A stretch of DNA of 64,000 nt from IMG/VR virus record IMGVR_UViG_3300029653_000083, positions 74,236 through 138,235 of that record. The stretch is one strand, 5' to 3'. The notes below the pieces were generated by a model. That model did no database searches. It was not told where the DNA came from and saw nothing but the letters and a program-made list of their open reading frames with translations. This document shows, one piece after another, positions 1 through 16,689 of the stretch. This DNA comes from a virus (taxonomy: Duplodnaviria; Heunggongvirae; Uroviricota; Caudoviricetes). A program made the translations under genes and the position numbers. The first letter of the stretch is position 1, and every line of letters starts with the position of its first letter.

Positions 1-579
1 GTGAACCATATCATCCATATCACGGTAGATTGTGGTGCTGGTACCATCCACCTTCACGGTCGGAGTCCACGCAATCCGCCTGATTTCATCCCAATACGCG
101 GTGAGATTCTGCACTCGCGTAGCGTCGGACTTGGAGCATGGCGCGTTGAAAGCGCCAACCATATCCCCGCCTTTCAAAGGCGGTAGTTCCTCGAATTTCC
201 ACACGTTCGCCTGCAAGGTGACGTCGGTGCCGACTGGAGTATCCTCCGGCACGCCAATAGCCGAGAGCGGCATGACCAAACCCTGACTGTATACGCCTCG
301 CAGTCTTGCGGTCTTCAACACATGTCCGGTGATTTCGCGTCCTTCGCCGGTAATCGTGTTGGACACTGGCACGGTACGCTGCCCACGTTTCTGCAATTCC
401 GCATACCGTGGGTCGTCGGCGGGCAGCATGGAGTCGATTTCGAAATATGCCACATGGTCGCCGGGCTTTAATCCCATGTCCTTGCCTACTACGACAATCC
501 ATCCGCCAATGCGAGCCTTCTCGATACGGTCTGCGTTCTCGATAGGGTACACTCCCTCAATCTTTTGAACGCTTACCAT
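1..579 (-). CDS. ATP-dependent RNA ligase family protein (DRB0094/Rnl-like), 3' end cut by window edge
   Basis: Manual minus-strand translation from ATG at ~577-579 is stop-free to position 1. It reads MVSVQKIEGVYPIENADRIEKARIGGWIVVVGKD..VAYFEIDSMLP..TVKVDGTS (KxDG nucleotidyltransferase motif I). Absent from ORF track because no stop lies inside the window. Confidence 0.6.
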   Translation of the reverse strand, partial: MVSVQKIEGVYPIENADRIEKARIGGWIVVVGKDMGLKPGDHVAYFEIDSMLPADDPRYAELQKRGQRTVPVSNTITGEGREITGHVLKTARLRGVYSQGLVMPLSAIGVPEDTPVGTDVTLQANVWKFEELPPLKGGDMVGAFNAPCSKSDATRVQNLTAYWDEIRRIAWTPTVKVDGTSTTIYRDMDDMVH

Positions 580-652
580 TTTTCTAACCATCAGGTTTTC
601 CTTTCTAACAGTAAGAGGGGAGAAGATGATATCGGCTCCTCCCCGAAAAATG

Positions 653-1540
653 TCAGTCCTTTTCGGACAGTGGAGTCAACCGCAACGGGAATCGTTCCTC
701 CAGTTCGAGGGCGATAAGAACCCTCTCGTCCACCGGAACATCATGTGAGGCCAGCTTGTCCAGCAAAGTTGACAGGCTGTAAGGGTCTCCCAGATGATAC
801 TGTTTGCCACGATACTGTTCCGGCAATGCCACGGGAGTGCGATGCTCCTTGCTCCACGGCTCGCTACGCAGAACATCCAACGTGAGGGGAGTGTTGGATT
901 CTTCCATCTTGCGACGCGCGTTCCAATACGTTTCGTCGCACTGGTATCGGCATTCCGGAACATCCACCTCATACTTTCCGTCCTTGTAACGGATGACCGT
1001 CACATAGCCGTGAATGTGGGAGTCCTCCTCCCATGGCGTGTAGATGAGCGTCTGATAATCCAATTCGTCGTACATTTGGTCGAGGCTGACGTTCAAGTAG
1101 ACGGATAGAAGCCTGACGGTGCCGAAGGAAGCGTGTTCGAGCGCATGCTGGTCGTGGCTCCAACGGTTGATATCCTCGATAATCTCGTCCACTGGCTTCA
1201 ACTGTTCCGGGTCGAGGTCGCGGATTTCGTCAACGGAATACGAATCGTATTCGTCGCATGCGATTTCCTCGGCAATCTCACGGACGGTCATGCCGCTGGT
1301 TGCGAGAATGGTTTCCAATCCGGACTGCGTGTCATGGCATAGCGGACAACCGCAGTATCGGATATTGCGCAGATTGCGCATCAACTCCGTATAATCCTTG
1401 CCTGTCGCATAATGGGTGCCGTCCGGCATGGCGTATCCGGGCTTCAAATGAGTGCGAAGCCCATCCTTGGTTTCCTGCGGGATGGTGTCGGAAACGTATT
1501 TGGCGTTCTCTCCGATAATCTGCTTTTCACTGGTGTCCAT
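653..1540 (-). CDS. hypothetical protein (295 aa)
   Basis: Long ORF, GC3-rich codon usage, GAAAGG RBS upstream of ATG. Confidence 0.55.
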   Translation of the reverse strand: MDTSEKQIIGENAKYVSDTIPQETKDGLRTHLKPGYAMPDGTHYATGKDYTELMRNLRNIRYCGCPLCHDTQSGLETILATSGMTVREIAEEIACDEYDSYSVDEIRDLDPEQLKPVDEIIEDINRWSHDQHALEHASFGTVRLLSVYLNVSLDQMYDELDYQTLIYTPWEEDSHIHGYVTVIRYKDGKYEVDVPECRYQCDETYWNARRKMEESNTPLTLDVLRSEPWSKEHRTPVALPEQYRGKQYHLGDPYSLSTLLDKLASHDVPVDERVLIALELEERFPLRLTPLSEKD

Positions 1541-1548
1541 AAAACGGT

Positions 1549-1821
1549 TCAGCCTTTCTTCTCGCTGGTTTTCTTGGTGGACGTTTTTCGGGTTTTCGGT
1601 GGTCTGTGGAATTCAAGAACGTTTTCCTCATTCAAGGATTTGCGTTGCAAGGTCATGACGGTTTTATGCGTGCGCATGCAATGCTGGCAGATGACCAATG
1701 TTCGAGCGTATGAGCATCGACCGTGACCGCCTGTTTGGACGACGGAGATGATGTACTTGTAGCCGGTGTCCAAGTCGGTGACTCTTCCGCACAACATGCA
1801 TGTGTATTTGGAACAAATCAC
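1549..1821 (-). CDS. hypothetical Cys-rich small protein (CxxC..CxxC)
   Basis: ORF track; GTG start overlaps stop of upstream gene (GTGA coupling). Confidence 0.4.
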   Translation of the reverse strand: MICSKYTCMLCGRVTDLDTGYKYIISVVQTGGHGRCSYARTLVICQHCMRTHKTVMTLQRKSLNEENVLEFHRPPKTRKTSTKKTSEKKG

Positions 1822-2045
1822 GATTCGTTCTCGCCATCTTTATCGAGTTCATTGCGAAGGATTTCCAAAGCCATGTCGATAGCCTCGTCCCAGCCTTTCC
1901 GCCATCCGATGACAAACGCTTCCGCCGGGGCGACTTTACCAAGCTTCGATTGGAGCAATGAGTGTACGGCCCTTTCTTTCAGTTCGTTTTCGTTCAAACT
2001 TTCTGCTCCTTTCCCTTGTCGGCCATCAGTGCGACGGCCAACCAT
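1818..2045 (-). CDS. hypothetical small protein
   Basis: ORF track; start uncertain, overlaps upstream gene by 20 nt. Confidence 0.3.
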   Translation of the reverse strand: MVGRRTDGRQGKGAESLNENELKERAVHSLLQSKLGKVAPAEAFVIGWRKGWDEAIDMALEILRNELDKDGENES

Positions 2046-2619
2046 GCCGGTAGTGGTGTATTCTGTAATTTCTGTGCTTCCTTCCGGGTTTCAGCCACGC
2101 GAAGGAACGGCTCCTTGTCTTCGGTGAGCATGTCGCCCGCCATTTTGACCGTTTTTTCGAAGTGGATAGAAGCTGTTCGGCCTTCTGGTCTCCGCCCCTC
2201 CACATGACTTGGAATCTAAGAGTTGCCCACAACCATGGATTGTCCCAAGAGTCCTTCGGAATATCGTTAGCCGCGAACAAGTGGAGCAAATGTCGGACAC
2301 GTCGGGTCAGGCTGGCTTTGCTTGCGGAATATTTGCCGCGTTTGGAACCAGAGAGGAACGCTTTCATTCCTGTGTCGAACGCGTCTGGATTGGTGTGTTG
2401 GAGCACGCTCCCGGACAGGATGGTGTCGTTCACGGTTTCGGCGCTGGTCAGATGCCATCCGTGGCAGACGGGGCAATGGTATGCGCGTTTCTCAGTGTGT
2501 TTCGGATTTCCTCGTCCTTTGATGACGGCCAAGGCGAGTTGGGCTTCCTTTTGGTTGGGGTAACGCACTTTGTTTCGGTTGAGAGTGCATTTACCTGCGG
2601 TCTTGTATAAGCTGTGCAT
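2026..2619 (-). CDS. hypothetical protein with N-terminal zinc-ribbon-like motif (HCPVCHGWH)
   Basis: ORF track; AAGAGGAG RBS; preceded by motif 2 and motif 1. Confidence 0.5.
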   Translation of the reverse strand: MHSLYKTAGKCTLNRNKVRYPNQKEAQLALAVIKGRGNPKHTEKRAYHCPVCHGWHLTSAETVNDTILSGSVLQHTNPDAFDTGMKAFLSGSKRGKYSASKASLTRRVRHLLHLFAANDIPKDSWDNPWLWATLRFQVMWRGGDQKAEQLLSTSKKRSKWRATCSPKTRSRSFAWLKPGRKHRNYRIHHYRHGWPSH

Positions 2620-2650
2620 GATGTCCGTCTCCTCTTACTGTTCAGCAAAA

Positions 2651-2685
2651 GGAAGTAGTAATACGGCAGTATTCCAATCCCAATC
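2651..2685 (-). promoter_or_regulatory. conserved element motif 2, copy a
   Basis: GATTGGGATTGGAATACTGCCGTATTACTACTTCC in gene orientation, ~35 nt upstream of CDS 2026..2619; 4 copies in window. Confidence 0.5.
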
Positions 2686-2749
2686 GTGCATGAGTTCGTA
2701 TGGGTCGATGTTTTTTCATGGTGTTCTCCTTTTTTGGAATGGTTTTTTA

Positions 2750-2770
2750 TGTGAACACCCCCAGTATAAC
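2750..2770 (-). promoter_or_regulatory. conserved promoter-proximal element motif 1
   Basis: tgtgaacacccccagtataac; family consensus TTGTGTGAACAATTCCAGTATA (gene orientation TATACTGGAATTGTTCACACAAA). Confidence 0.5.
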
Positions 2771-2778
2771 ATAAACCA

Positions 2779-2803
2779 TTAAAGAGGGCAACTACCCCCT
2801 CTT
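2779..2803 (-). terminator. putative hairpin terminator overlapping stop codon of 2792..3052
   Basis: AGAGGG-loop-CCCTCT stem followed by U-rich tract on minus strand. Confidence 0.3.
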
Positions 2804-3052
2804 CACAACCTTCGCACCATACTTATCAGCCCACTGACGAGCCAACGTCTTCGCCTGTTCCCTACAAGCACGACGACTGAAAGCCGCACTGAACGTATGA
2901 GAACGCTTCATATCCCAAACCTTCCCATTCTCACTATCATGCCGACGATACAATACAACCTTCAAAGCGATGACGGAACCATACTTGTCCCGCACCTTCT
3001 CAATGACCACGACCTTCTTGTTCTTGTGGCTTTTGTCGCTATGCTGGGACAT
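2792..3052 (-). CDS. hypothetical basic small protein
   Basis: ORF track; motif 1 variant upstream. Confidence 0.45.
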   Translation of the reverse strand: MSQHSDKSHKNKKVVVIEKVRDKYGSVIALKVVLYRRHDSENGKVWDMKRSHTFSAAFSRRACREQAKTLARQWADKYGAKVVKRG

Positions 3053-3091
3053 TCCGGCTCCTCCTAAAAAAGAAAAACAGCGAGCACAATA

Positions 3092-3116
3092 TTGTGCCCA
3101 CTGTTCCAGTGTAACA
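3092..3116 (-). promoter_or_regulatory. motif 1 (variant)
   Basis: ttgtgcccactgttccagtgtaaca upstream of CDS 2792..3052. Confidence 0.4.
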
Positions 3117-3291
3117 ATAGAGATTTGGAAAACGCTAAGAACTCAGTAATCCGACTCCAACCTCCGTGCGGCACCAAGCCCATGGTCGGTCAGCCTGATG
3201 TCCTCGTGTCCCAACAGAGTACGCCAATAGTCGGCATACCCGTTATCTATAAGGGACATAGCCGCGTCCTGATTATGTTCGTTAACCTCCG

Positions 3292-3861
3292 CTAAGCGTC
3301 CACGATGGTATGCGTCGCAGAGGAGCCTTTCGGCTTTTTTATCCAATGCATTCGCCTTTCGATATAATACGAGAACATGTACTTCCGACGCTCCCAGACC
3401 GGCGAATAAATCACATACTTGATGGTGTCCGTATCCCGCAGGATGACGCTGATTTCGCCAACACTGTCCCGTTGGATGAACTGCACGATACCTCGAACGG
3501 TTAGAGAACGCCGACTCAATAATATCCGGTCGCCAAGCTGAATTCGCTGCCCAACGAAACAATCATCTAATTCGGTCAGCAGTTCCGCACCGGTCTCGAT
3601 GGACGAGTGGAAACTGTTCAGCGGGTTACGGAGAAAACTTCCAACCTTACAGTTCCAGTCGCGCTGTGCGTCGTGCAAGGTTTGGAAGCCGACTCCGCCA
3701 GATGTTTGCAAACCATTATCCACTGGACAAAAGTGGGAGTATCCCCAACCTTTCGGCAGAAAATATTGCTCGTCGTCCCAAGTGCAGTGGAGTTCAGATT
3801 TAGCCCGATACTTAAATTCGGGAATGCTGTTACAGCATGGGCATGTAAGAAGGTTTCTCAC
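3292..3861 (-). CDS. hypothetical protein with N-terminal CPCC zinc-ribbon (Lar-like restriction-alleviation fold possible)
   Basis: ORF track; GTG start overlapping stop of upstream gene, GAAAGGA RBS; overlapping 3143..3562 ORF judged spurious. Confidence 0.45.
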   Translation of the reverse strand: MRNLLTCPCCNSIPEFKYRAKSELHCTWDDEQYFLPKGWGYSHFCPVDNGLQTSGGVGFQTLHDAQRDWNCKVGSFLRNPLNSFHSSIETGAELLTELDDCFVGQRIQLGDRILLSRRSLTVRGIVQFIQRDSVGEISVILRDTDTIKYVIYSPVWERRKYMFSYYIERRMHWIKKPKGSSATHTIVDA

Positions 3862-4115
3862 CCCAGTCCTTTCTGAGTCCTTAAGAGTTCGTCCAGTTTT
3901 TCCTCGATGCTTTCCAACCTCAAGCGCAACGCCTTCTGGCTTTCGTAGATGGCCGCAACCTCTCCTGAGACTTCGTAGAGGGTTTTGTTGCCATACATGT
4001 CATGCTTCTTGTCGGCCTGTTTCTCAAGCTTCGCTATCTCCCGCTCCCGTTGCGACGGCTTGCGTGATTTCAGATAGTCCCTGCATTCGGGACTGAACAT
4101 GTCCTCGTATCCCAT
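3858..4115 (-). CDS. hypothetical protein
   Basis: ORF track; start abuts stop of exonuclease gene. Confidence 0.5.
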   Translation of the reverse strand: MGYEDMFSPECRDYLKSRKPSQREREIAKLEKQADKKHDMYGNKTLYEVSGEVAAIYESQKALRLRLESIEEKLDELLRTQKGLG

Positions 4116-4700
4116 TTAGCGGCCAAATTCCTCTCTGCGCATGGCTTCATACAGCATGTTTTCCTGAGTCGCGTCGGACAAGGCGCGATGCTCTTCCACG
4201 TCACCGATACCATAGTCGCGGATAAGCACGGCAACCTTATGGCTTGGCTTTTCGGGATGGATTTTCCGGCTCATTTCCAACGTGTCCACGAACCGGTGTG
4301 GAAAGAAGAACATTCCACCGTTCACGGTTTTCATGGCCGCGTCCAAGAAACTTAAATCGAATGACGCGTTATGCGCCATGATGATGGTTCGCGGGCCAAG
4401 CCACTTGTCGAATCGGATGATGGCTTGGCTTACGTCGGGTTGTCCGATGACCATGCTGTCGTTGATTCCGGTGAGCGAGGTGATGTATTCGGGGATTGGC
4501 TGGTGTGGGTCAATCAGTTGCTCGTATCGGTCTACGAGTTTTCCGTCATGGATTTTCACGGCTCCGATTTCGATGAGTTTAGCCCCGTTTTCGGGTTTGA
4601 AGCCGGTGGTTTCGGTATCCAAGACCACGTAATCGTAGAGTGGTGTTTTCATTGGGTCGATTCTTCTGGGGTCTCGACTTTGGTATTTGTCCCAGCTCAT
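4116..4700 (-). CDS. DEDDh 3'-5' exonuclease (DnaQ / Pol III epsilon-like)
   Basis: Exo I VLDTETTG, Exo II HNASFDLSFL, Exo III HRALSDA motifs; AAGGAGAC RBS. Confidence 0.85.
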   Translation of the reverse strand: MSWDKYQSRDPRRIDPMKTPLYDYVVLDTETTGFKPENGAKLIEIGAVKIHDGKLVDRYEQLIDPHQPIPEYITSLTGINDSMVIGQPDVSQAIIRFDKWLGPRTIIMAHNASFDLSFLDAAMKTVNGGMFFFPHRFVDTLEMSRKIHPEKPSHKVAVLIRDYGIGDVEEHRALSDATQENMLYEAMRREEFGR

Positions 4701-4725
4701 GGTGTGGTCTCCTTGGATAAGTGAA

Positions 4726-4749
4726 TGTGTGGACGTTTCTAGTATAACG
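4726..4749 (-). promoter_or_regulatory. motif 1 (variant)
   Basis: tgtgtggacgtttctagtataacg, ~26 nt upstream of exonuclease start. Confidence 0.45.
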
Positions 4750-4750
4750 C

Positions 4751-5020
4751 CTATTTGGTGATGGCCTTGACACGCCCGTCCAGAACTGTTCTTACGACAT
4801 CCTCGAAGTCCGTGCCATCAGGCAATAAGTGGGAGTCTTGGAGGTTTCCGATAATCTCCACCAGTTCCGTATGCCCGTGCGGAGTGCGCTTATAGTCGCG
4901 GGTCGCACCCGCCTTGTATGCGCGACGCAACTGTAACGCCAACTGTTCCCGTGTGAGCGTGATGTAATCGCCTTCCTCGATGGGATACCGTTCTTCCAAT
5001 TCCTCGTTGAGAATGCTCAT
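4751..5020 (-). CDS. hypothetical protein
   Basis: ORF track. Confidence 0.45.
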   Translation of the reverse strand: MSILNEELEERYPIEEGDYITLTREQLALQLRRAYKAGATRDYKRTPHGHTELVEIIGNLQDSHLLPDGTDFEDVVRTVLDGRVKAITK

Positions 5021-5046
5021 TTTTTTTGTTTTTCCTTTCTGTTTTT

Positions 5047-5442
5047 TCAGACGTACATTCCCTCATGCCAGCCGTGTAGCAAACCCCATTCGGATAGTTT
5101 CCGGAACCATTTCTCGCATTCGTCAGCCACCTTGTTGGGATAATCCAACGTCGGGTTCACGTTGAGTAAATACTGGTAGTCGTAGGGTTGGCAGAAGTTC
5201 TCGTCCAACACGTCTATCTGCCAGTCGCTACCGTCCTTGGCAATCTCGACATTCAATGTCATGTCATGGTCGGGGGAGACTGAACAGCAGAGGTACCAAT
5301 ACCCCTCACGGTGGTCAGTGAACCCCAGTCGGCGCATGGTCGAATCTTCGGCGGGACTCATGCTAAGCGCCGCATTGTTCTGATGCTTCGTGTAGGTGAC
5401 GCCTATGGTCAAGAATCGGGGCGTGTTCTGAGTGTCGAACAT
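5047..5442 (-). CDS. hypothetical protein
   Basis: ORF track. Confidence 0.5.
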   Translation of the reverse strand: MFDTQNTPRFLTIGVTYTKHQNNAALSMSPAEDSTMRRLGFTDHREGYWYLCCSVSPDHDMTLNVEIAKDGSDWQIDVLDENFCQPYDYQYLLNVNPTLDYPNKVADECEKWFRKLSEWGLLHGWHEGMYV

Positions 5443-5450
5443 GTTCTCTC

Positions 5451-5822
5451 CTATTCTTCGCTTTCGCGCAGGTCGATTACCGGAATATGTGTATCGGTGG
5501 AATAGTGGACGGAATAAGGGTCGATTGTCCTATGCCGCCAGCTGACGCCACCTTCCACCGGCCAAGCCAGCCAGCCTATGCCGTCCAAATAGTTCAGAAT
5601 GCTGACGTGGACAATCCAACGGCACCATCTTGCAGGGCATATCACGTCGAACATGGGAGTATCCTCGGTTCCCGGTCGGCAGGAATGCCGTTGCCAAGAA
5701 CGCAGATACACGCGATAAAGCGCATAGGAATCATCTGTTGGCAGTTCCTCAGTGTCGAACACCGCGCGAGTTGGGTGGTCATCGAAGAGGATTCGTTTGC
5801 CGAATTTAGTTGCTTGATTCAA
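5451..5822 (-). CDS. hypothetical protein (TTG start)
   Basis: The first 17 codons of the 5451..5873 ORF are just the translation of motif 1 and its leader. AAGGAGG RBS precedes TTG at 5820-5822. Confidence 0.45.
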   Translation of the reverse strand: MNQATKFGKRILFDDHPTRAVFDTEELPTDDSYALYRVYLRSWQRHSCRPGTEDTPMFDVICPARWCRWIVHVSILNYLDGIGWLAWPVEGGVSWRHRTIDPYSVHYSTDTHIPVIDLRESEE

Positions 5823-5857
5823 TGCGTCCTCCTTTTTGGTTTTTGTCTTTGTTTTTG

Positions 5858-5880
5858 TTGTGAACAATCCCACTATAACA
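5858..5880 (-). promoter_or_regulatory. motif 1
   Basis: ttgtgaacaatcccactataaca. Confidence 0.5.
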
Positions 5881-5911
5881 CAAGGGGGGTAGAAAAACGC
5901 AACACGAAAAC

Positions 5912-10415: not shown

Positions 10416-10437
10416 GGTTTCTCCTTCTCGGCATATC

Positions 10438-10461
10438 TTGTGTGAACAATTCCAGTATAGC
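10438..10461 (-). promoter_or_regulatory. motif 1
   Basis: ttgtgtgaacaattccagtatagc. Confidence 0.55.
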
Positions 10462-10576
10462 CTAAGTTGAGATAAAACACAACACGCAACCAAGCCAAAA
10501 CGAAGACGCAATCCCCGCCCATACGAAAAAAAAGGAATACGCCCACATGATTTTCCTGCGGGCGTATTCCCATGTT

Positions 10577-10885: not shown

Positions 10886-10904
10886 TGTGGCTCTTTCTCT
10901 CATA

Positions 10905-10930
10905 TTTGTGTGAACAATTCCAGTATATCA
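10905..10930 (-). promoter_or_regulatory. motif 1
   Basis: tttgtgtgaacaattccagtatatca. Confidence 0.55.
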
Positions 10931-11022
10931 TATTTAAGAGAAAGCGCAAAAGCGCAAAAAAACAAAAAGCCGTGCAAATACAAAAAGCATTCACACGACT
11001 CGGAAATTTTTACCACTATTAG

Positions 11023-11319
11023 TTAGTCAAAGTCCGACGGTTCACCATTGACGTAGTTCAAAAACTGGTCGAAGGCATATTGCGCGGTATCCTCATAACG
11101 GCATGGCTTCGGCTGTGCGTTCTTTTCCCGCTCTTTCTGCTCTATTAACTGGTCTATTTGGCTTTGCTCATTGCGGTGTTGCCACGCGAGAGGCTCGTTG
11201 CCTTGGGCTAGGTTCTCATACACCGTGTATTCGTGCCCACGATAGCTGTAGACAAGATAGACCATATGTGCGTCATATCCGTGCCCGTAGTATTTCCTAA
11301 TGAATGTCGCTTTTCGCAT
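11023..11319 (-). CDS. hypothetical protein
   Basis: Internal ATG (MRKATFIRKYYGHGY) with GAAAGGGG RBS, 11 nt after stop of upstream gene. Confidence 0.5.
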   Translation of the reverse strand: MRKATFIRKYYGHGYDAHMVYLVYSYRGHEYTVYENLAQGNEPLAWQHRNEQSQIDQLIEQKEREKNAQPKPCRYEDTAQYAFDQFLNYVNGEPSDFD

Positions 11320-11330
11320 TGCTGCCCCTT

Positions 11331-12254
11331 TCAGCCAATCTCGTGCTCGGCACGCTCCCAAATCTTCCGGCGAATCTCACTGTCCTCGGAAAACATGAAG
11401 CCAAGCTCCAACACTTGACGGACGGCTTCTCGGTATTCCTCCAAACGGTCATGCAAGGCCATGTACGCGTCGCTCTTGAACGCCTGATTGATGAACGAGT
11501 CCGGCATGTCGCGCATGACCTTGACCAGTCTGTAACGTCCCACCTCGTCCGCGTTCTCCCAAGCGTTCATGACACGCTCACAAGTGGCCCACTGCGGCTC
11601 GTCGGCCAGCACATGCGCCACATCCTGCGGGTTAAGACGGGCCAACACTTCATCCACCTTGCCGTCTTCGGTCAGGAGAGCCGCCTGAACGCGAATCTGA
11701 CTGTTGGGATTGTCCAGCCAATGTTCGACGCATTCCTTATCGAAGTTATGGTTATAGATAAGGGTTTTGACCACACGCTCGTCCGACTCCTCGAAGAAGA
11801 GGTGAGGGTCTGCGTTCTTTGCCGCCATGAGTCGAATCTGATAATCCTCGTCGTGGGCCAAACCGTTCGACGTTTCCTTGTCGAGCTTGCTGAACTTGTT
11901 GAGCATTGTGGCCGCTTTCTTGCGAATCTCGGCGCTCCTGTCATGTAGGGCCACTTTGGATAGTTCCTTGACGGGTAGTTTCTTTTCGTCGTATACGCGC
12001 CAGTCGAAGTAGTAGTTACGGACTTTCAGGGGTAGTTCGGAGAGTTTGCCGGAGTTGAAATGCTGTCTAATGTTGGCGAGTTCGTCTTCGCCTGTTTGGG
12101 TGAGAGTCCAGTCGCCCGTCTCGTTTTCCTGAATGAGTCCGGCTTTGGCGAGTTTGGTGATGTCGCGGTCGGGGAATACTCGGCGTTCGGGTTCGCGCTC
12201 GAATCGCATGAATTCGTAGATTGCGGTTTCGTTCCAGTTGATGTTGTCGCTCAT
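11331..12254 (-). CDS. HEAT-repeat protein
   Basis: Repeated D.s..IR..AA..L motifs (HDRSAEIRKKAATML, DEDYQIRLMAAKNA, NPNSQIRVQAALL); start MSDNINW with AAGGAG RBS; first 56 codons of track ORF are motif 1 read-through. Confidence 0.6.
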   Translation of the reverse strand: MSDNINWNETAIYEFMRFEREPERRVFPDRDITKLAKAGLIQENETGDWTLTQTGEDELANIRQHFNSGKLSELPLKVRNYYFDWRVYDEKKLPVKELSKVALHDRSAEIRKKAATMLNKFSKLDKETSNGLAHDEDYQIRLMAAKNADPHLFFEESDERVVKTLIYNHNFDKECVEHWLDNPNSQIRVQAALLTEDGKVDEVLARLNPQDVAHVLADEPQWATCERVMNAWENADEVGRYRLVKVMRDMPDSFINQAFKSDAYMALHDRLEEYREAVRQVLELGFMFSEDSEIRRKIWERAEHEIG

Positions 12255-12276
12255 TTCTGCTCCTTTTGGTTTCCTG

Positions 12277-12303
12277 TTTGTGTGAACAGTTCCAGTATAG
12301 TAC
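12277..12303 (-). promoter_or_regulatory. motif 1
   Basis: gtttgtgtgaacagttccagtatagta. Confidence 0.55.
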
Positions 12304-12330
12304 AGAATAGAGAAATGCTCAACCCCGAAC

Positions 12331-12696
12331 CTAATCAACCAAACGCCCGAAACCATCAAACGGAACCAACGAATACACCAACCAGCCAACAAGCGCCAGC
12401 AATGCAAGCGCCGCAATCGCATACACCAGCGTACCTACGAACAAGCCAGCCAAAAACACGTTCATCTGCCGTTTGCGTTGCTCCAGCAGCTCATACCATT
12501 CGCTTTCGCACCGGTCGAATGCGTCAGCATCCATGCCGGTGCCTCCATGGGCTTGAAGCCAATCGCGTACGGTCGGCATGGGAGGCAGCGGGTCGGATAT
12601 GCAAGCGTGCGGTACAAGCGCGGTTTTAAGCCCTTGCCAAACGCCGTTGAAAAAGAACGCGGGAAAACGTGCGGCCTTCACCGTGCTGGGTATCAT
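12331..12696 (-). CDS. hypothetical membrane protein (C-terminal TM)
   Basis: ATG at 12694-12696 overlaps stop of upstream gene (ATGA), AGGTG RBS. Confidence 0.45.
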   Translation of the reverse strand: MIPSTVKAARFPAFFFNGVWQGLKTALVPHACISDPLPPMPTVRDWLQAHGGTGMDADAFDRCESEWYELLEQRKRQMNVFLAGLFVGTLVYAIAALALLALVGWLVYSLVPFDGFGRLVD

Positions 12697-13412
12697 TTTT
12701 TCACCTGCTGCCTTCGTCCGACAATCTTCTTGCCGCCCACGCTCCGCAACCATGCCAAGCCATGACCATAGGAGACCATACCGGCTTCGACGGTTGGATT
12801 CTGCTGGAACATGTAATGCACTTCCGCGAGTCCATTGCCTCCGTTTGTTTGCAGAATACGAATCCCGTAATCCTTTTCGACTGCCTTGACCGCCATGTCC
12901 CGTTCGAGTTCGTCGAACCAGCCGTAGAGCGGGAGCATGGCGAATGCGGTCAATGCGCCTACGGCGATGAACCGCCAACATGTTTTCGCTCCTACCAACA
13001 ATGCGATTGCCGCCACGAGAATTCCAATGACGGCGATTCCCGTCAACAGTTGACGCCATTTGCCGTTGCAGTCGTATTCGACGGGCGCGTACGGGTTGGT
13101 GGGGGTTGGTGTTGGAGGTGCGGTTTTGTTGGTTTTGCGTGTGGCGGGCTTGTAGGCTTTCGGAGCGGTTTTGTTTACTGTTGAAGTAGTTTTCTCGCTC
13201 GTCTTGCTGGCGGTTTCGTCGGTGTTTTCGGTGGACTTGTCCGCTGTTTTCGGTTCGAATTTCAATGGTGGTGCCGGTGGGTTCAACATCTTTCGTTCCG
13301 TCTTCTTCACGATTTCTTGCAGTTCGATGGTGGTGGACGAGTCGGGTTCATCCATCGGTTCCTGACCTAACATCATGAGGTCGTTTTCCAGTGAGATGTT
13401 CCGTTCTTTCAT
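12693..13412 (-). CDS. hypothetical membrane protein with Thr/Pro/Lys-rich linker
   Basis: Start MKERNISL with AAAGGAAG RBS; two predicted TM helices near C-terminus; motif 2 upstream. Confidence 0.5.
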   Translation of the reverse strand: MKERNISLENDLMMLGQEPMDEPDSSTTIELQEIVKKTERKMLNPPAPPLKFEPKTADKSTENTDETASKTSEKTTSTVNKTAPKAYKPATRKTNKTAPPTPTPTNPYAPVEYDCNGKWRQLLTGIAVIGILVAAIALLVGAKTCWRFIAVGALTAFAMLPLYGWFDELERDMAVKAVEKDYGIRILQTNGGNGLAEVHYMFQQNPTVEAGMVSYGHGLAWLRSVGGKKIVGRRQQVKK

Positions 13413-13443
13413 GTAATTCTTCCTTTCTTTTTTGCCAAATATG

Positions 13444-13490
13444 AGAGAAGTAGAAGGAAGGAGTAATACGGCAGTCTTCCAATTCCAATC
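13444..13490 (-). promoter_or_regulatory. conserved element motif 2, copy b
   Basis: GATTGGAATTGGAAGACTGCCGTATTACTCCTTCCTTCTACTTCTC (gene orientation). Confidence 0.5.
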
Positions 13491-13500
13491 TTGGTGTGGG

Positions 13501-13809
13501 TCAGAGGATTCGGGTTCCCTTGCGGGTGACGAGCATGATTCTGTTTTCGTGACGGTTCTCGAAAACGTCCCAATTGCCACTCAGGACAGCCAAGCACACG
13601 TTGCCTTTGATGAGGTTCCAACGTTCGTCGCAGTTGGATACGACGTGCTTCCAGTTGATTGGATTGGGCTTGTGGTGGGAGGTTTCCACGATAGCTTCGT
13701 TCATGGGCTTGTCCGCGTAGGTGTGGTCGTAGGTGTTGTCTCCGGCGACTACGCTGATGGTGCCGTTGTCGTGGAAGATTGGCTGGTAGTAGGTTTTGGT
13801 GTCGTTCAT
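13501..13809 (-). CDS. hypothetical protein
   Basis: Internal ATG (MNDTKTYYQ) with AAGGAG RBS. Confidence 0.5.
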   Translation of the reverse strand: MNDTKTYYQPIFHDNGTISVVAGDNTYDHTYADKPMNEAIVETSHHKPNPINWKHVVSNCDERWNLIKGNVCLAVLSGNWDVFENRHENRIMLVTRKGTRIL

Positions 13810-13835
13810 TTGTTCTCCTTGGTTGGCTCCGCCTG

Positions 13836-13863
13836 TTTTATGTGGACATTTCCAGTATAGCAC
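13836..13863 (-). promoter_or_regulatory. motif 1
   Basis: gttttatgtggacatttccagtatagca. Confidence 0.5.
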
Positions 13864-13937
13864 GTTTGGATAAATATACAAAACAAGACACGTCCACACA
13901 AAAAGCCCCGCCAAAACGACGGGGCCACAAACCAAAA

Positions 13938-14138
13938 CTATCGATTCATGCTCAATCGAATCTTGACCGCGACGACCAGCAACGCGACTATGAGGGCGCA
14001 GACCGACACGACGCCGAACGTGCGGCCAAACGTGAACAGCCAAGTGCCGAACGAGTAGATGCCGAACGCGACTGCGGTGGTCACTCCACAGAACGCGATG
14101 GTGACGAGCGTCATGAGCAGAACATCCTTGATATGCAT
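13938..14138 (-). CDS. small membrane protein (2 TM)
   Basis: Internal ATG (MHIKDVLL) with AAGGAG RBS. Confidence 0.4.
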   Translation of the reverse strand: MHIKDVLLMTLVTIAFCGVTTAVAFGIYSFGTWLFTFGRTFGVVSVCALIVALLVVAVKIRLSMNR

Positions 14139-14174
14139 TTTTCTCCTTTTGGTGACGGGTTTTGCGAACCCTTG

Positions 14175-14200
14175 TTTGTGTGAACAATTCCAGTATACAT
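14175..14200 (-). promoter_or_regulatory. motif 1
   Basis: tttgtgtgaacaattccagtatacat. Confidence 0.55.
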
Positions 14201-14271
14201 CATGGTGGGATACGACACGCCAAACAAAAAGCGCCCCACCCATCCAAGGGAGAGGCGCTAAAACCCGACGG

Positions 14272-14649
14272 TCAGAACTCATACTCGCAATCGGAATCGA
14301 GATACCATTTGTCGCCGTAACCCCAAAGAACACGACGGATGGTCGCAGGGTCGTTCAGCTCCACGAACTTGGACGCCAATTCATCCACCGGCATGGCGGA
14401 AAAAGCCTTATCCACGGAACCGTAGAATCTATCCCATTCCGCCTGTTCGGCGTCGGAATCGACAAGCTCATGGAACCGTTCGGCAAGCTTTTTGTCCGGT
14501 AGGGTGACTTCCGCAAAATTCGTATCCTCTATGTCCAGCCAAGCGTTGAAACACTTGTCGGCCAAGGCTTCGACTGGGATGGTGAGGATGCTGGAATACG
14601 TGCCTTTCCACGCGTTCCTTTTGAAGAAGCTAACGTCTCTTGCCTTCAT
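14272..14649 (-). CDS. hypothetical protein
   Basis: Internal ATG (MKARDVSFF) with AGGAGGAA RBS. Confidence 0.5.
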   Translation of the reverse strand: MKARDVSFFKRNAWKGTYSSILTIPVEALADKCFNAWLDIEDTNFAEVTLPDKKLAERFHELVDSDAEQAEWDRFYGSVDKAFSAMPVDELASKFVELNDPATIRRVLWGYGDKWYLDSDCEYEF

Positions 14650-14662
14650 TTTCCCGTTCCTC

Positions 14663-15157
14663 CTATTCTTCCTCGCCGTCCGTCTGACGGAGCGGGACGA
14701 TACGGTTCCACTGTTCCTCATACTCGTCCTCCGCGTCCTTGGAACCATTGTCCAGCAGTTTGTTCAACGTGGCTCGTCCTACGTCGCTGAGACGGCTGAT
14801 GCTGCGGAGGATGCTCGCCACGTCGTCGGCTTCGTATAATTTGTTGCGATTGTCCAAAAGTTCCTGATACTTCGAGTCGGTGAGGTTCCAGAGATAGTCT
14901 TCCAGTAGTTTCCAGTCTTCTTTTTCGGCAGAGGGTACTGGAATCGGCTTGGTGAGCCGCCAATCTTCGAGAATGTCCGCCCAAGGGTCGGTCTTGACAT
15001 TGTATTCGCCAAGGTCTTCCTCGTGGGTGAGTTTTTCGATTCGCTGTTCTTCGCCATCCTCGTCCAAGTAGTCTATTGTGAGATATTCACTATCCACTGA
15101 CAAGGTGGAGAGTTCGCGTAGTTTGGTGATTTTGAGGTTGGTGATTGTCTTAATCAT
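14663..15157 (-). CDS. hypothetical acidic protein
   Basis: Internal ATG (MIKTITNL) with AAGGAGG RBS. Confidence 0.5.
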   Translation of the reverse strand: MIKTITNLKITKLRELSTLSVDSEYLTIDYLDEDGEEQRIEKLTHEEDLGEYNVKTDPWADILEDWRLTKPIPVPSAEKEDWKLLEDYLWNLTDSKYQELLDNRNKLYEADDVASILRSISRLSDVGRATLNKLLDNGSKDAEDEYEEQWNRIVPLRQTDGEEE

Positions 15158-15185
15158 TTTTGTTCCTCCTTGTTGGAATCTATCT

Positions 15186-15210
15186 TTTGTGTGAACAATC
15201 CCAGTATACC
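15186..15210 (-). promoter_or_regulatory. motif 1
   Basis: tttgtgtgaacaatcccagtatacc. Confidence 0.55.
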
Positions 15211-15269
15211 ATGTTTGGTAGAAAAACAAAAACAGCCCACCTCCCAAATCAGGAAGACGGGCTGAAAAG

Positions 15270-16094
15270 TCAGGCATTCAGCAAAGCATGGGACGAAACA
15301 CCCATTTCAGACAAGCCCAAACCCACATTGTTCGCGTCGCTCACACCACAAACGAACCCAGCCTTGCTACCACGGGCGGTGGCGACGCGAGCTGCTTCCA
15401 GTTCGAGATTGTCGAAATAGTCGTTGACACGCTGGCTCTTGCGGGCCACAAGCTCACGACCGGAGGGAATGTCCAAGCTCTGCTTGCGAAGCTCCTCGAA
15501 ACGTTCGCTTAAACGTTCGTTGAATCCACCGCGATAACCATAGTAGAACTTGGCGCGTGGATAATCACGACGCATGTACTGTTTGCATTCCGTCAGCGTC
15601 GGATAGGATTCATGTCCGTAATGCGTTTCGACGTATTCCTTGTTGTCCTCATAGTACGCTTTGGCGTGCTGGTCAATCATGTCCGCGTAGCTAGTGCGGG
15701 CGTGGACTGAGCAGTACAGGTCGATGCTTTGGAAGAGAATGACTGCGGCGTTCACATCGTCCTCCTCGCCTACGAACATGACGGCACGTTCCTCAATCCT
15801 TCCGCCACACCGGCTTTCGTGAAGGTAGGCGCGGCATTCGTTAGCTTGGGCGATGATGGTCGCAAGGTAGCCTTGCTGATGGTAGATGGTGGTTTTGCTT
15901 ACGTTCACGCCACGTTCGATGATTGGCTTGTTCGTGCGGGTGCGGTCGCGTTTCCAGTCTTCGATACGATATTCGTTGATGAGTTTCTGTGCCCGCTCGA
16001 ACGCCATTTGCGCCTCATTGTCACTGGAAGCTTCGTTTTCGGCTATTGCCATAAGGTTGTTGATACGTTCGATGATGGTGTTGATGTCGCTCAT
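15270..16094 (-). CDS. DUF2786-like domain protein
   Basis: N-terminal INNLMAIAENEASSDNEAQMAFERAQKLINEY resembles DUF2786 helical N-domain; AAGGAG RBS. Confidence 0.55.
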   Translation of the reverse strand: MSDINTIIERINNLMAIAENEASSDNEAQMAFERAQKLINEYRIEDWKRDRTRTNKPIIERGVNVSKTTIYHQQGYLATIIAQANECRAYLHESRCGGRIEERAVMFVGEEDDVNAAVILFQSIDLYCSVHARTSYADMIDQHAKAYYEDNKEYVETHYGHESYPTLTECKQYMRRDYPRAKFYYGYRGGFNERLSERFEELRKQSLDIPSGRELVARKSQRVNDYFDNLELEAARVATARGSKAGFVCGVSDANNVGLGLSEMGVSSHALLNA

Positions 16095-16122
16095 TTTTTA
16101 CTCCTTGTGTTTCAGACTTCTT

Positions 16123-16148
16123 TTTGTGTGAACAATTCCAGTATACCT
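16123..16148 (-). promoter_or_regulatory. motif 1
   Basis: tttgtgtgaacaattccagtatacct. Confidence 0.55.
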
Positions 16149-16249
16149 GAGTATGAACACAACACGCCCAAAAACACGCAAACAACCCTCAGAAAAACAA
16201 AAACGCTCCCCAGTCCAAAAGGCAAGAAGAACGCTATCCGACAAAAACC

Positions 16250-16591
16250 TCAGGCACCAAGCTTGGAATGGTGCAGAAGCCTACGGATATGGATATTGTG
16301 AACGAACCGACTATGACCATTAATCCTCTTGGCGAACTCCCCATCGGAATACTCACCATCCGGAATACCATTCAGAACGTTCTCCGGAATGTCTGGAAGG
16401 GACTCCGGAAGACGCTCAAACATGTAATAGTTGACACCCTCACATCCTTCGACATGCTCGAAAAGCATGAAGTAGGCACCCTCGGGGTCGTCCATGAAAC
16501 GGCTCAGAACATAGGACTTGGACTTGTTAGCGTTGGCGAAGATGTTGTAATCCTCGGCACCATATTGGGTGAAATATGTGGACTTGTTCAT
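16250..16591 (-). CDS. hypothetical protein, paralog family A
   Basis: Paralog of 10577..10885; AAGGAG RBS. Confidence 0.55.
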   Translation of the reverse strand: MNKSTYFTQYGAEDYNIFANANKSKSYVLSRFMDDPEGAYFMLFEHVEGCEGVNYYMFERLPESLPDIPENVLNGIPDGEYSDGEFAKRINGHSRFVHNIHIRRLLHHSKLGA

Positions 16592-16620
16592 TTTTTCTCC
16601 TTATGTCCTTCAACTTACTT

Positions 16621-16645
16621 TTGTGTGAACGATTCCAGTATACCT
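16621..16645 (-). promoter_or_regulatory. motif 1
   Basis: ttgtgtgaacgattccagtatacct. Confidence 0.55.
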
Positions 16646-16689
16646 CAAGAGAGGATAAAACACAAAAAGAGAGACGGGAACCAAAACGA

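Follow-up and report, generated by a model that had tools for sequence, protein, structure and literature searches.

Genes of the minus-strand array

The left end of the window, the whole 64,000-nt stretch of DNA analysed here, carries a one-directional array of small genes. Our own gene calls gave 31 minus-strand genes between positions 653 and 16591, and adding the GNAT ORF and the gene calls of the metagenome brings the island to about 33 genes on a single strand, in agreement with a first-pass annotation that had placed about 30 small minus-strand genes at 0.6 to 16.6 kb. These genes have a median length of 120 aa (149 aa across the remaining window) and are separated by spacers of no more than 180 nt, with TnpB/IS605 insertions present within the array. 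The right edge proposed earlier, at 16642, is correct, as the promoter motif described below has no copy between 16642 and 37241. The proposed left edge only reflects where the window was cut: the array runs on to the left for at least another 9 kb, with six more motif copies. The island is transcribed opposite to the conjugation genes. However, the minus-strand block spans from 37 kb to past the window start, well beyond the island, and co-orientation is thus not island-specific. The features are listed below.

1–591, minus: 5' part of an Rnl5-type RNA ligase gene, final gene of unit 15 (motif 2746), cut by the window edge
653–2768, minus: unit 15; motif 2746–2768, then a 25-codon ORF (2719–2642)
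2026–2619, minus: unit 15 gene; 197 aa, basic, HCPxCxGWH zinc ribbon
1818–1997 and 1549–1797, minus: unit 15 genes, the second with CxxC
653–1540, minus: unit 15 gene; 295 aa, acidic orphan
2792–3113, minus: unit 14; weak motif 3091–3113 (12.7 bits), gene 2792–3052 (86 aa, basic)
3292–4746, minus: unit 13; motif 4724–4746, DEDDh (RNase_T/DnaQ-like) exonuclease 4116–4700, genes 3858–4115 and 3292–3861
4751–5877, minus: unit 12; motif 5855–5877, orphans 5451–5822, 5047–5442 and 4751–5020
5912–6623, minus: unit 11; weak motif 6601–6623 (15.8 bits), gene 6342–6587 (81 aa), GNAT acetyltransferase 5912–6367
6669–8017, minus: unit 10; motif 7995–8017, genes 7598–7960, 7213–7587 (acidic, two CxxC), 7036–7200 and 6669–6884
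8157–9366, minus: unit 9; motif 9344–9366, gene 9055–9315 (86 aa), ArdC-like gene 8157–9011 (ArdcN ssDNA-binding domain and HETAH metalloprotease domain)
9449–10459, minus: unit 8; motif 10437–10459, genes 9969–10415 and 9449–9877 (split copy of the 307-aa wHTH/HEAT-like protein)
10577–10927, minus: unit 7; motif 10905–10927, gene 10577–10885 (paralogue of 16250–16591)
11023–12299, minus: unit 6; motif 12277–12299, genes 11331–12254 (307 aa; weak wHTH and HEAT matches) and 11023–11319
12331–13859, minus: unit 5; motif 13837–13859, genes 13501–13809, 12693–13412 (membrane protein) and 12331–12534 (membrane protein)
13938–14197, minus: unit 4; motif 14175–14197, gene 13938–14138 (66 aa, two TM segments)
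14272–15208, minus: unit 3; motif 15186–15208, genes 14663–15157 (164 aa, net charge -20, lineage-restricted orphan) and 14272–14649 (acidic)
15270–16145, minus: unit 2; motif 16123–16145, DUF2786+DUF7168 protein 15270–16094
16250–16642, minus: unit 1; motif 16620–16642, gene 16250–16591 (113 aa); right-hand array boundary
37241–37263, plus: motif copy outside the island, driving the first plus-strand gene where two gene arms diverge
44259–45455, plus: wHTH + PD-(D/E)xK nuclease-fold protein, adjoining the coupling protein 45908–48568
60031–63395, plus: second cassette array; motif copies 60031, 60500 (weak), 63054 and 63373; extends past the right window edge

Most functions proposed at first pass were recovered by domain and family searches. 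The ArdC-like protein combines an ArdcN domain (E 4e-12) with an HExxH Peptidase_M78 domain, matches an anti-restriction PHROG and has an identical counterpart at NCBI named 'ArdC-like ssDNA-binding domain-containing protein [Bifidobacterium adolescentis]'. It is the only island gene of a recognised anti-defence family and stands second in its own unit rather than next to the promoter. The DEDDh exonuclease (RNase_T, E 6e-32; PADLOC DEDDh, 2e-36) shares 56% identity with an exonuclease of the plasmid pMP7017 that is likewise motif-driven, and the DUF2786 protein (phrog_421) also has a motif-driven homologue there (30% identity). The GNAT acetyltransferase matched PF13508 in the metagenome gene calls and phrog_13728 (acetyltransferase, 1e-19). 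The RNA ligase proved to be of Rnl5 type (E 4e-36 to Naegleria NgrRnl, KVDG at residue 180); the window holds residues 1–197 of 351 (1–591), and the full gene lies at L005:10950–12005 (PF09414 RNA_ligase). Small CxxC zinc-ribbon-like proteins were found as claimed. The accompanying Lar-like claim did not hold up, as ten small island proteins scanned singly gave no Pfam match at E ≤ 1; nor did Lar of pMP7017 give a tblastn match. As for the supposed HEAT-repeat paralogues, the paralogy stands and the HEAT assignment does not, being weak and under the Pfam cut-off: 9969–10415 and 9449–9877 form a split copy of 11331–12254, fused as a 321-aa protein in L015, while 10577–10885 and 16250–16591 are paralogues of each other. 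The 307-aa protein (11331–12254) has a pMP7017 homologue that is motif-driven too. About 26 of the 33 island genes, mostly orphans, have no family assignment; the unit 15 genes matched solely PHROG families without assigned function, the unit 12 orphans matched no domain or PHROG family, and the fold matches of one structure-modelled island orphan were uninformative.

A promoter motif shared with pMP7017

Judging from its homologies, the window is part of a ~220 kb B. adolescentis conjugative megaplasmid, a distant relative of the experimentally conjugative pMP7017 (PMC8313286). Its T4CP (coupling protein) is 59% identical to those of pMP7017 and B. longum megaplasmids, and the backbone at 37.5–61.6 kb is syntenic with pMP7017. 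Proteins identical to those of the window are named from B. adolescentis isolates and also occur on 180–231 kb contigs from human gut metagenomes.

The motif that precedes each unit reads TGnTATACT-GGAAnTGTTCACAcAAA. Searching with TGTGAACAATTCCAGTATA at up to three mismatches gave 16 matches against 0.02 expected, and a PWM scan placed 15 copies in the island (13 strong), all in the sense of the genes. Fourteen precede a called start codon by 4–38 nt; next after the copy at 2746 comes the 25-codon ORF. Across the window there are 20 copies, all gene-sense, 18 of them 4–47 nt upstream of a called start, and further copies flank the window on both sides. The earlier claim that each gene has its own copy was incorrect: 15 copies serve about 33 genes (about 2.2 per unit), which implies about 15 operons. 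The logo comprises a weak -35 TTG, a 17-nt spacer, an extended -10 TGnTATACT and an invariant downstream half, in which the 17-nt element GGAAnTGTTCACAcAAA, fused to the promoter, covers about -6 to +12; this element is nearly invariant and not palindromic. The motif promoters are predicted to be short, double-strand and of host sigma-A type, and no Frpo-like ssDNA hairpins were found around -35/-10 at island promoters. About 8 of the 15 copies have a terminator hairpin immediately upstream. The arm consists of about 15 short transcription units, each with a sigma-A promoter and one to five small genes.

In pMP7017, a 34-bp 'plasmid-specific regulon' motif (19 copies, 56 genes) has been proposed as a transcription-factor site, and RNA-seq found its promoters active in established log-phase cells, six of them highly (Dineen et al., 2024, PMC10832533). 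The motif described here is this plasmid-wide motif, and hence neither new nor island-specific; the first-pass notion of a dedicated shared promoter stands as to sharing among units and fails as to dedication to the island. Our own scan of pMP7017 (190 kb) found 26 copies over both strands, including those upstream of ssb, DUF2786, the exonuclease and the RNA-ligase operon. Proteins of the two lineages are 30–68% identical and non-coding DNA outside the motif has no detectable similarity, the motif being the sole DNA conserved apart from coding regions. Across motif copies the lineages differ by consistent substitutions (GAATATGTCC vs GGAATTGTTC). No recognisable HTH or RHH regulator was found among those motif-driven genes that the two lineages have in common.

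Variability of the array and cassette boundaries

The array differs among plasmids sharing an identical neighbouring ATPase gene. Region 7980–9054 (ArdC and the downstream promoter 7995) is missing in variants L017, L021 and L023, unit 7 is missing in L021, whose junction falls within motif copies 10437 and 10905, and similarity to L021 and L023 stops exactly at 12299, the unit 6 motif. Three deletion junctions fall inside motif-copy pairs (overlaps of 31–65 nt), and 8 of 20 breakpoint clusters lie in motif windows covering 7% of the region (P about 4e-5). Since alignment ends are expected at any conserved motif, this enrichment is evidence for cassette boundaries at motifs and not for recombination at those sites. 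Among 99 IMG/VR loci, which are not independent as many come from one dataset, we counted 433 motif copies and 88 cassette types, and 19 of 25 frequent types had more than one successor type. These comparisons between plasmid variants show an array that is hyperplastic, with gene-content breakpoints sitting on motif copies, often with an upstream terminator.

Possible roles of the array and related systems

The array is probably a hyperplastic accessory arm of the megaplasmid, made up of co-regulated cassettes of an establishment or anti-defence type. Its genes would belong to a plasmid-wide co-regulated set, with a plasmid-encoded factor probably binding the invariant element. The promoters may fire in a cell that still lacks the regulator and be damped later, as described for Reg576 of p576 and ArdK/CUP of pKM101; tight repression is unlikely, because several pMP7017 motif promoters are highly active in established cells. 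The invariant element could also act in the RNA leader, or be simply a strong promoter module. The repeated motif may double as a portable recombination joint, at which cassettes would be gained, lost and reordered to give a diverse pool of small genes. Establishment or anti-defence functions are plausible for the ArdC-like protein, the exonuclease, the RNA ligase and many acidic orphans, and we hypothesize an anti-defence role for orphan genes.

A doubtful though conceivable account is that of a plain accessory ORFan region, in which duplication and recombination would have spread the motif as no more than a strong, portable, constitutively active promoter with a 5' leader, and there is neither a dedicated regulator nor a special establishment or anti-defence role. 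Steady-state activity of the pMP7017 promoters, the failure to find a regulator, the preponderance of orphans, the paralogous duplications and split genes, and the TnpB/IS605 insertions would all fit. However, the near-invariance of 17 nt downstream of the -10 across lineages at 30–68% protein identity, amid otherwise undetectable non-coding similarity, argues for selection on the element itself, the consistent lineage substitutions fit co-evolution with a trans factor, and ArdC, exonuclease, DUF2786 and ssb genes are motif-driven in one or both lineages. It is unlikely that the array is a true leading region of the F, ColIb-P9 or IncN type, which would lie next to oriT, enter first and be expressed early off the transferred strand. 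From the leading-region-like model put forward at first pass, the ArdC-type gene with nucleic-acid enzymes, the uniform orientation opposite to the conjugation genes and the common promoter are retained, and the dedicated element is lost. Hypervariability is also reported for leading-region anti-defence islands (PMC11541004), and as the array extends leftward beyond the window, an oriT further left would give an F-like gene orientation. Yet neither a relaxase nor an oriT is known from this plasmid family, Pfam and NCBIfam found no relaxase in the window, and every T4CP-matching plasmid in PLSDB, Bifidobacterium megaplasmids included, is typed non-mobilizable. The only candidate relaxase in the window, the wHTH + PD-(D/E)xK protein beside the T4CP, is at least 27 kb off; island genes point away from it, so that the entering strand would be coding, not template. 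The short double-strand promoters and spacers also speak against this reading, as do arrays of the same motif that flank the transfer genes on either side and occur throughout pMP7017, the activity of pMP7017 motif promoters in established cells rather than silence until transfer (PMC10832533), and domain and homology searches of the island that found no ssb, psiB, ArdA or methyltransferase.

An early region of a large phage or phage-plasmid is very improbable. IMG/VR files these elements as viral genomes (100–217 kb UViGs), several genes match PHROG families (exonuclease, DUF2786 phrog_421, acetyltransferase, anti-restriction) and in architecture the array is reminiscent of the hyperplastic early regions found in T4-type phages (PMC2839356); against this, the window encodes a T4SS coupling protein, a CD3337/EF1877-like membrane protein, ParA, RepA with iterons and sortase/pilin genes, contains no capsid, portal, terminase or tail family, has no match in the phage genome collection, and shares its backbone synteny with an experimentally conjugative plasmid (PMC8313286).

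As a putative co-regulated establishment array, the island has several known parallels. Leading-region anti-defence islands (Samuel et al., 2024, PMC11541004) likewise combine one-directional small, mostly uncharacterised genes with an anti-restriction gene. A mapped oriT serves as the reference point for defining those islands, in which Frpo ssDNA promoters, SSB, methyltransferases and anti-CRISPRs are frequent; none of these was identified in the sequence here. Repressor-controlled establishment genes including ardC have a precedent in the Gram-positive conjugative Bacillus plasmid p576 (PMC6294495), whose ardC-containing cluster is also transcribed opposite to the conjugation genes from several sigma-A (extended -10) promoters with a common short repeated element; expression there is explained by de-repression once the plasmid has entered and not by ssDNA promoters. 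In p576, four promoters occur in 7.9 kb, their repressor is a known RHH protein and their operator is a direct-repeat heptamer around the -35, whereas in the window we found at least 20 promoters, no recognisable regulator among the conserved motif-driven genes and, downstream of the -10, a 17-nt element that is not repeated. In the IncN pKM101 leading region, as summarised in PMC6289460 (citing Delver & Belogurov, 1997), repeated conserved upstream sequences (CUP/ArdK) similarly hold promoter and operator before anti-restriction and other early genes. There, the oriT-adjacent location and the repressor are known experimentally, whereas a position next to oriT and a regulator are putative for the window array; the CUP element has no sequence relationship to the window motif.

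In the PeSL cassettes of T4-type phages (PMC2839356, PMC4122927), a conserved stem-loop and promoter composite is likewise found on the flanks of small ORFan genes of hyperplastic regions, at the junctions where related genomes differ by insertion, deletion or replacement. Unlike these phage cassettes, the plasmid array has a host sigma-A extended -10 promoter with an extra invariant 17-nt downstream element, and a terminator hairpin at only about half of the motif copies. Closest is pMP7017, of the same backbone family, whose motif has the same core (TG-Y-TATACT then G(A/G)A..TGT(C/T)CACA(T/C)AAA, overlapping the -10), lies no more than 60 nt upstream of start codons and drives in part the same genes (exonuclease, DUF2786, wHTH/HEAT-like protein and two small backbone genes). 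The window represents a different lineage, with a B. adolescentis host and 30–68% protein identity, that would escape the ≥70% identity screens of Dineen et al. (2024, PMC10832533). Its consensus departs from that of pMP7017 at several positions, and its motif is packed, unlike in pMP7017, at one per ~1.1 kb in an array of more than 16 kb. The motif itself is already published; what is new is the hyperplasticity of the array and the coincidence of breakpoints with motif copies, a link between motif and indel junctions that is absent from Dineen et al. (2024, PMC10832533) and seen here.

The element and its relatives

The 886-aa protein encoded at 45908-48568 was 59% identical to a protein of Bifidobacterium megaplasmids (B. 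breve pMP7017 and several from B. longum) and approximately 27% identical to annotated type IV coupling proteins (T4CP) of Arthrobacter plasmids. Synteny was observed between 37.5-61.6 kb of the window and 55.8-34.8 kb of pMP7017, a conjugative megaplasmid of 190 kb, and the T4CP, partition and replication genes of the pMP7017 backbone were all found. The window also encodes ParA, a CD3337/EF1877-like membrane protein and a RepA_C protein, the gene of which lies beside iterons that likely represent the vegetative origin (oriV):

56633-56741: five 22-bp iterons in tandem (GAAAGTGGGCACTTTCGACACG), next to the RepA_C gene (55545-56414, minus strand)

The rep gene is inverted or replaced in some plasmid variants found on metagenome contigs (L010 and L011 versus L009).

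Proteins identical to those of the window carry NCBI names from Bifidobacterium adolescentis isolates and occur on contigs of 180-231 kb from many human gut metagenomes; one 87-aa protein of this plasmid lineage was listed in 2149 index blocks. The same elements are filed in IMG/VR as viral contigs of 100-217 kb. Protein identity between the window lineage and pMP7017 ranged from 30 to 68%. Megablast of the island (the small minus-strand genes at 0.6-16.6 kb) against plasmid and phage collections returned no close DNA match, and a scan of genome contigs with the T4CP gave no match. Our literature search found no publication on a B. adolescentis megaplasmid, and the one published survey of relatives of pMP7017, with identity thresholds of at least 70%, would have missed the window lineage. 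It is apparently a second, undescribed megaplasmid lineage of roughly 200-231 kb, which human gut metagenomes show to be common in B. adolescentis.

Rfam and tRNA scans of the window returned zero matches. A complete diversity-generating retroelement (DGR) was present on the minus strand at 19909-23010, with 29 mismatches over 168 nt between its repeats, 25 of them at template adenines:

19909-21063, minus strand: DGR reverse transcriptase
21319-21486, minus strand: DGR template repeat
21529-22044, minus strand: Avd-like protein of 171 aa
22117-22284, minus strand: DGR variable repeat, at the 3' end of the gene for a secreted DUF6273 protein (22117-23010)

Layout and content of the small-gene array

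The first-pass annotation had described the first 16.6 kb as a one-directional island of small genes, and this island is real. In a codon-usage-trained gene call, the interval 653-16591 contained 31 minus-strand genes and no credible gene on the plus strand. With a GNAT ORF (5912-6367) and a longer gene form (3292-3861) included, and after comparison with the gene calls of identical metagenome contigs, the total was approximately 33 genes on a single strand. The median protein length was 120 aa in the island versus 149 aa in the remainder of the window. The minus-strand block continues beyond 16.6 kb to 37.1 kb, interrupted by a single plus-strand ATPase gene, and this stretch contains the DGR, a sortase/pilin cluster and genes for an SPFH protein, DnaB and a ParB-like protein; the plus strand carries most genes from 37.3 kb onward. 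Co-orientation therefore characterises an arm of 37 kb or more, and what is distinctive in the first 16.6 kb is the small size of the genes and the density of a promoter motif. The lone opposite-strand gene bounds the array:

16758-17915, plus strand: AAA_16 ATPase, 52% identical to its pMP7017 orthologue

In pMP7017, this orthologue likewise adjoins a minus-strand copy of the motif, so the array/ATPase junction is conserved between the two lineages.

No family could be assigned to approximately 26 of the 33 island genes. For the others, the earlier annotation was largely correct, apart from a motif count that was too high and an unsupported Lar call:

1-591, minus strand: Rnl5-type RNA ligase, of which only residues 1-197 lie within the window
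4116-4700, minus strand: DEDDh/RNase_T exonuclease, confirming the DnaQ-like assignment
5912-6367, minus strand: GNAT acetyltransferase, as proposed
8157-9011, minus strand: ArdC-like protein (ArdcN domain, HETAH metalloprotease domain, PHROG anti-restriction match)
15270-16094, minus strand: the proposed DUF2786 protein, with DUF7168 alongside

Both domains expected of ArdC were present. The N-terminal ArdcN ssDNA-binding domain (PF08401) was matched with 46.8 bits (E = 4e-12) against a Pfam cut-off of 22.6, and the C-terminal half carries the HETAH (HExxH) motif and a Peptidase_M78 match (E = 2e-8). A match to the anti-restriction family phrog_7245 extends across residues 13-276; a comparison with PDB sequences, solved ArdC structures included, gave no match. 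By its sequence, 8157-9011 encodes a bona fide ArdC-type protein with a predicted anti-restriction role. The RNA ligase claim was also borne out, the protein being of the Rnl5 type (DraRnl/NgrRnl): similarity to Naegleria NgrRnl (E = 4e-36) covers residues 2-317, KVDG (KxDG) occurs at residue 180, and an N-terminal OB-like domain and an adenylyltransferase domain were found, with matches to PF09414 and PF21189.

Paralogy was likewise found among the genes described as HEAT-repeat paralogs, but the HEAT assignment itself fell below the Pfam cut-off. The gene at 11331-12254 has a split copy (9969-10415 plus 9449-9877), which occurs as a fused 321-aa form in the related plasmid contig L015, and in a second pair 10577-10885 matches 16250-16591. 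Several small island proteins contain CxxC pairs and many are strongly acidic. No Lar homologue was found in the window by tblastn with pMP7017 Lar or by Pfam searches of the small island proteins, leaving the Lar-like call without support. The tblastn searches of the window with pMP7017 Lar, ssb, two methyltransferases and WhiB returned zero matches, and neither domain searches nor tblastn revealed ssb, psiB, ArdA or a methyltransferase in the island. Most island and backbone proteins remained unassigned after searches with Pfam, NCBIfam, PHROGs and PADLOC, which detected no relaxase, Lar or defence system. For one acidic orphan protein, the structure was modelled and the fold comparison was uninformative.

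Outside the island, 60083-60454 (plus strand) encodes a strongly acidic protein of 123 aa (net charge -20) with no family match, which is motif-driven both here and in pMP7017 (36% identity). Together with the next gene, coding for a basic 110-aa protein, it is among the few motif-driven genes conserved family-wide. A second repeated element of 45 nt was noted within the array at 2644-2688 and 13449-13493 (87% identical), with the near-palindrome GTAATACGGCAGTATTCC inside. One copy lies in a 25-codon ORF and the other in the spacer 13412-13501.

The promoter motif and the joints of the array

The sequence TTTGTGTGAACAATTCCAGTATA recurs on the plus strand of the window, where a search allowing up to 3 mismatches gave 16 matches versus 0.02 expected. 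A PWM scan located 15 motif copies in the island (13 strong, 2 weak) and five outside, named here by their start coordinates:

2746, 4724, 5855, 7995, 9344, 10437, 10905, 12277, 13837, 14175, 15186, 16123, 16620: strong copies (at least 26.8 bits), sense to the minus-strand genes
3091, 6601: weak copies in the island
37241, 60031, 60500, 63054, 63373, plus strand: copies outside the island

Between 16642 and 37241, the scan found none. All 20 copies are sense to the next gene, and 18 sit 4-47 nt 5' of a called start codon, within a limit of 60 nt. After the copy at 2746, the 25-codon ORF comes first, and the called start lies 48 nt downstream of the copy at 37241. On the gene strand, the motif logo comprises a weak TTG at -35, a 17-nt spacer, TGn, TATACT and a near-invariant GGAAnTGTTCACAcAAA, after which come an A-rich leader and then a Shine-Dalgarno sequence; the promoter contains GGAAnTGTTCACA. 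These features identify the motif as a sigma-A extended -10 promoter fused to a conserved element at roughly -6 to +12. An ECF-type promoter with GGAA as the -35 was rejected, as the region 16-17 nt downstream is not conserved, and so was a palindromic operator, the conserved element having no dyad symmetry. Directly upstream of approximately 8 of the 15 island copies is a GC-rich hairpin with a T-run, so the composite there is a terminator plus a promoter. With 15 copies for approximately 33 genes, the array comprises approximately 15 operons of one to five genes each. The statement that each gene has its own copy was thus overstated; the ArdC-like gene is the second in its unit (a motif copy and its genes).

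A shared promoter is already published for this plasmid family. Dineen et al. (2024; PMC10832533) described in pMP7017 a 34-bp motif, AWAYATGY-TATACT-GAATATGTCCACATAAAAWA, that overlaps the -10, was first seen at six highly expressed genes with 13 further sites added later, and was predicted to drive 56 genes (24% of pMP7017). It was present in related plasmids, absent from bifidobacterial chromosomes, and proposed to be a transcription-factor binding site (PMC10832533). The window motif fits this consensus overlapping the TATACT -10, and the window-derived PWM recovered 26 copies on both strands of pMP7017, including sites 5' of ssb, DUF2786, the exonuclease, the RNA-ligase operon and cas genes. 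More copies lie beyond the window, to the left and right. With copies around pMP7017 and on both sides of the window, the motif is therefore plasmid-wide in the family and no signature of the island: the element proposed as a dedicated shared promoter is shared, but not dedicated.

In line with absence from chromosomes, the exact motif pattern had just 7 single, unrelated matches, consistent with chance, in 185,579 species-representative genomes; in IMG/VR, the motif search returned 99 multi-copy loci, all on large contigs of the same element type. A search for conserved non-coding DNA between the window and pMP7017 lineages, made as a route to oriT, turned up the motif alone, the only such DNA alignable between them. 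Each lineage has substitutions that are consistent across its copies. Together, these two observations argue for selection on the motif sequence, and they would fit co-evolution with a trans-acting factor. Family searches of candidate genes did not identify a plasmid regulator of the motif.

Array gene content varies among contigs that carry an identical neighbouring ATPase gene. Relative to the window, three contigs with related plasmid variants lack the following segments:

9375-13836: absent from L017, junction inside motif copies 9344/13837, alignments overlapping by 31 nt
10490-10893: absent from L021, junction in motif copies 10437/10905, overlap of 65 nt
9409-10904: absent from L023, junction in motif copies 9344/10905, overlap of 64 nt
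7980-9054 (ArdC and the promoter after it): absent from L017, L021 and L023, which are natural variants without the ArdC cassette

The similarity of L021 and L023 to the window stops exactly at 12299, where a motif copy has its upstream edge. Of 20 breakpoint clusters, eight fell inside motif windows covering 7% of the region (P ~4e-5), a figure to be read knowing that alignments stop naturally at any conserved motif. Across the window and the 99 IMG/VR loci, which are non-independent samples, 433 motif copies delimited 320 motif-to-motif intervals (median 0.9 kb) of 88 types, and 19 of the 25 frequent types had more than one successor type. Indel and replacement junctions between related genomes thus coincide with the motif, as in PeSL-type cassettes. 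With these two caveats, the alignments demonstrate a hyperplastic array, a cassette-shuffling hotspot whose joints are the motif, which is new here. The link between motif and junctions suggests how such arrays diversify. IS605-family TnpB genes (OrfB_IS605/Cas12f-like) were also seen at different array positions in different variants (L005:16820-18262, L021:6018-7459).

Transfer polarity and comparison with known systems

Neither of the two pMP7017 papers mentions a relaxase or oriT, and all T4CP-matched plasmids in PLSDB, Bifidobacterium megaplasmids included, are typed as non-mobilizable. Pfam and NCBIfam revealed no relaxase in the window, and the neighbourhood of the Arthrobacter T4CP homologue was of no help toward one. 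A candidate adjoins the coupling-protein gene:

44259-45455, plus strand: 398-aa protein with a winged helix and a PD-(D/E)xK restriction-endonuclease fold

This protein has no match in Pfam or NCBIfam, and its family comprises 26 clusters only, all from such elements. Its AlphaFold model reached a pLDDT of 85.7, and the residues D220, E234 and Q236 are invariant. The restriction-endonuclease fold is known from some relaxases (MOBC/TraX); the fold, the conserved acidic residues and the position beside the coupling protein agree with that type. The protein is therefore a candidate, not an established, relaxase. Although the plasmid family is typed as non-mobilizable, it conjugates in experiments, and this protein may supply its missing relaxase.

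Three candidate oriT or origin regions were examined: the A-rich 42.2-43.07 kb, the divergence point at 37.1-37.3 kb and the iterons at 56.6 kb, of which only the iterons were interpretable (oriV). The 0.85 kb at 42200-43070 has no convincing ORF and had no Rfam match; its plus strand is extremely rich in A/C and poor in T/G (AT skew of 0.36, 2 kb bin). It lies between a minus-strand gene and the operon of the ParA-like protein, relaxase candidate and T4CP, and may serve as a leader, an oriT region or an RNA.

The island had been likened to a plasmid leading region. An F-like leading region adjoins oriT, and the strand that enters is the template. If oriT were near the relaxase candidate, which is at least 27 kb from the island, the island genes would point away from it, so the entering strand would be coding, not template; distance, gene direction and ordinary double-strand promoters would then count against such a region. 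The F-like orientation would result from a possible oriT situated outside the window, to the left of the array. The promoters themselves are short sigma-A promoters with unpaired -35 and -10, not ssDNA hairpin promoters of the Frpo/ssi type, and the island hairpins, upstream of the promoters in spacers of at most 180 nt, are terminator-like and not Frpo-like. Among hallmark genes of leading regions, only the ArdC-like gene was present; ssb, methyltransferase and Lar were not found in the window. In pMP7017, steady-state RNA-seq recorded motif promoters active in established cells (PMC10832533). Taken together, the evidence does not support the narrow leading-region reading, leaving it a rather unlikely one, and the current picture of leading regions is unchanged.

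By analogy, the model with the best support is the "establishment gene" scheme of the Gram-positive plasmid p576. In that plasmid, ardC and its neighbours run in the opposite direction to the conjugation operon; their sigma-A promoters have in common an operator for a plasmid-encoded repressor, and the genes are de-repressed after entry (PMC6294495). We infer that the motif units would similarly be held by a common plasmid regulator and de-repressed after entry, and that array genes would have anti-defence roles. Among Gram-negative systems, the p576 scheme has its analogue in the CUP/ArdK regulon of pKM101.

To our knowledge, pMP7017-type megaplasmids are the only known large conjugative elements of bifidobacteria, a group whose restriction systems make transformation difficult. 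In the B. adolescentis lineage, a dense, fast-changing array of co-promoted small genes surrounds the ArdC-type protein. Compact and amenable to experiment, this array can be mined for candidate anti-restriction or establishment genes, and the motif provides a defined promoter/operator for Bifidobacterium genetics. To the published motif, our analysis adds the lineage assignment, the motif-jointed shuffling hotspot and the candidate relaxase.

Among described systems, the array is most closely paralleled by the PeSL promoter-terminator cassette of T4-type phages (PMC2839356, PMC4122927). A tentative and rather doubtful reading is that the array is a plasmid version of this principle. A portable terminator-promoter-operator module would tag every cassette, one plasmid-specific regulator binding at ~-6 to +12 would govern each of them, and the module would supply the homology for continual cassette exchange. 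The resulting pool of at least 88 cassette types would encode small, mostly acidic orphan proteins, many of which would be new factors that serve anti-defence or establishment when a Bifidobacterium recipient is entered. If true, this would concern megaplasmids that are widespread in adult-gut Bifidobacterium. PeSL is a composite of terminator stem-loop and promoter, whereas here a clear hairpin with a T-run accompanies approximately 8 of the 15 copies.
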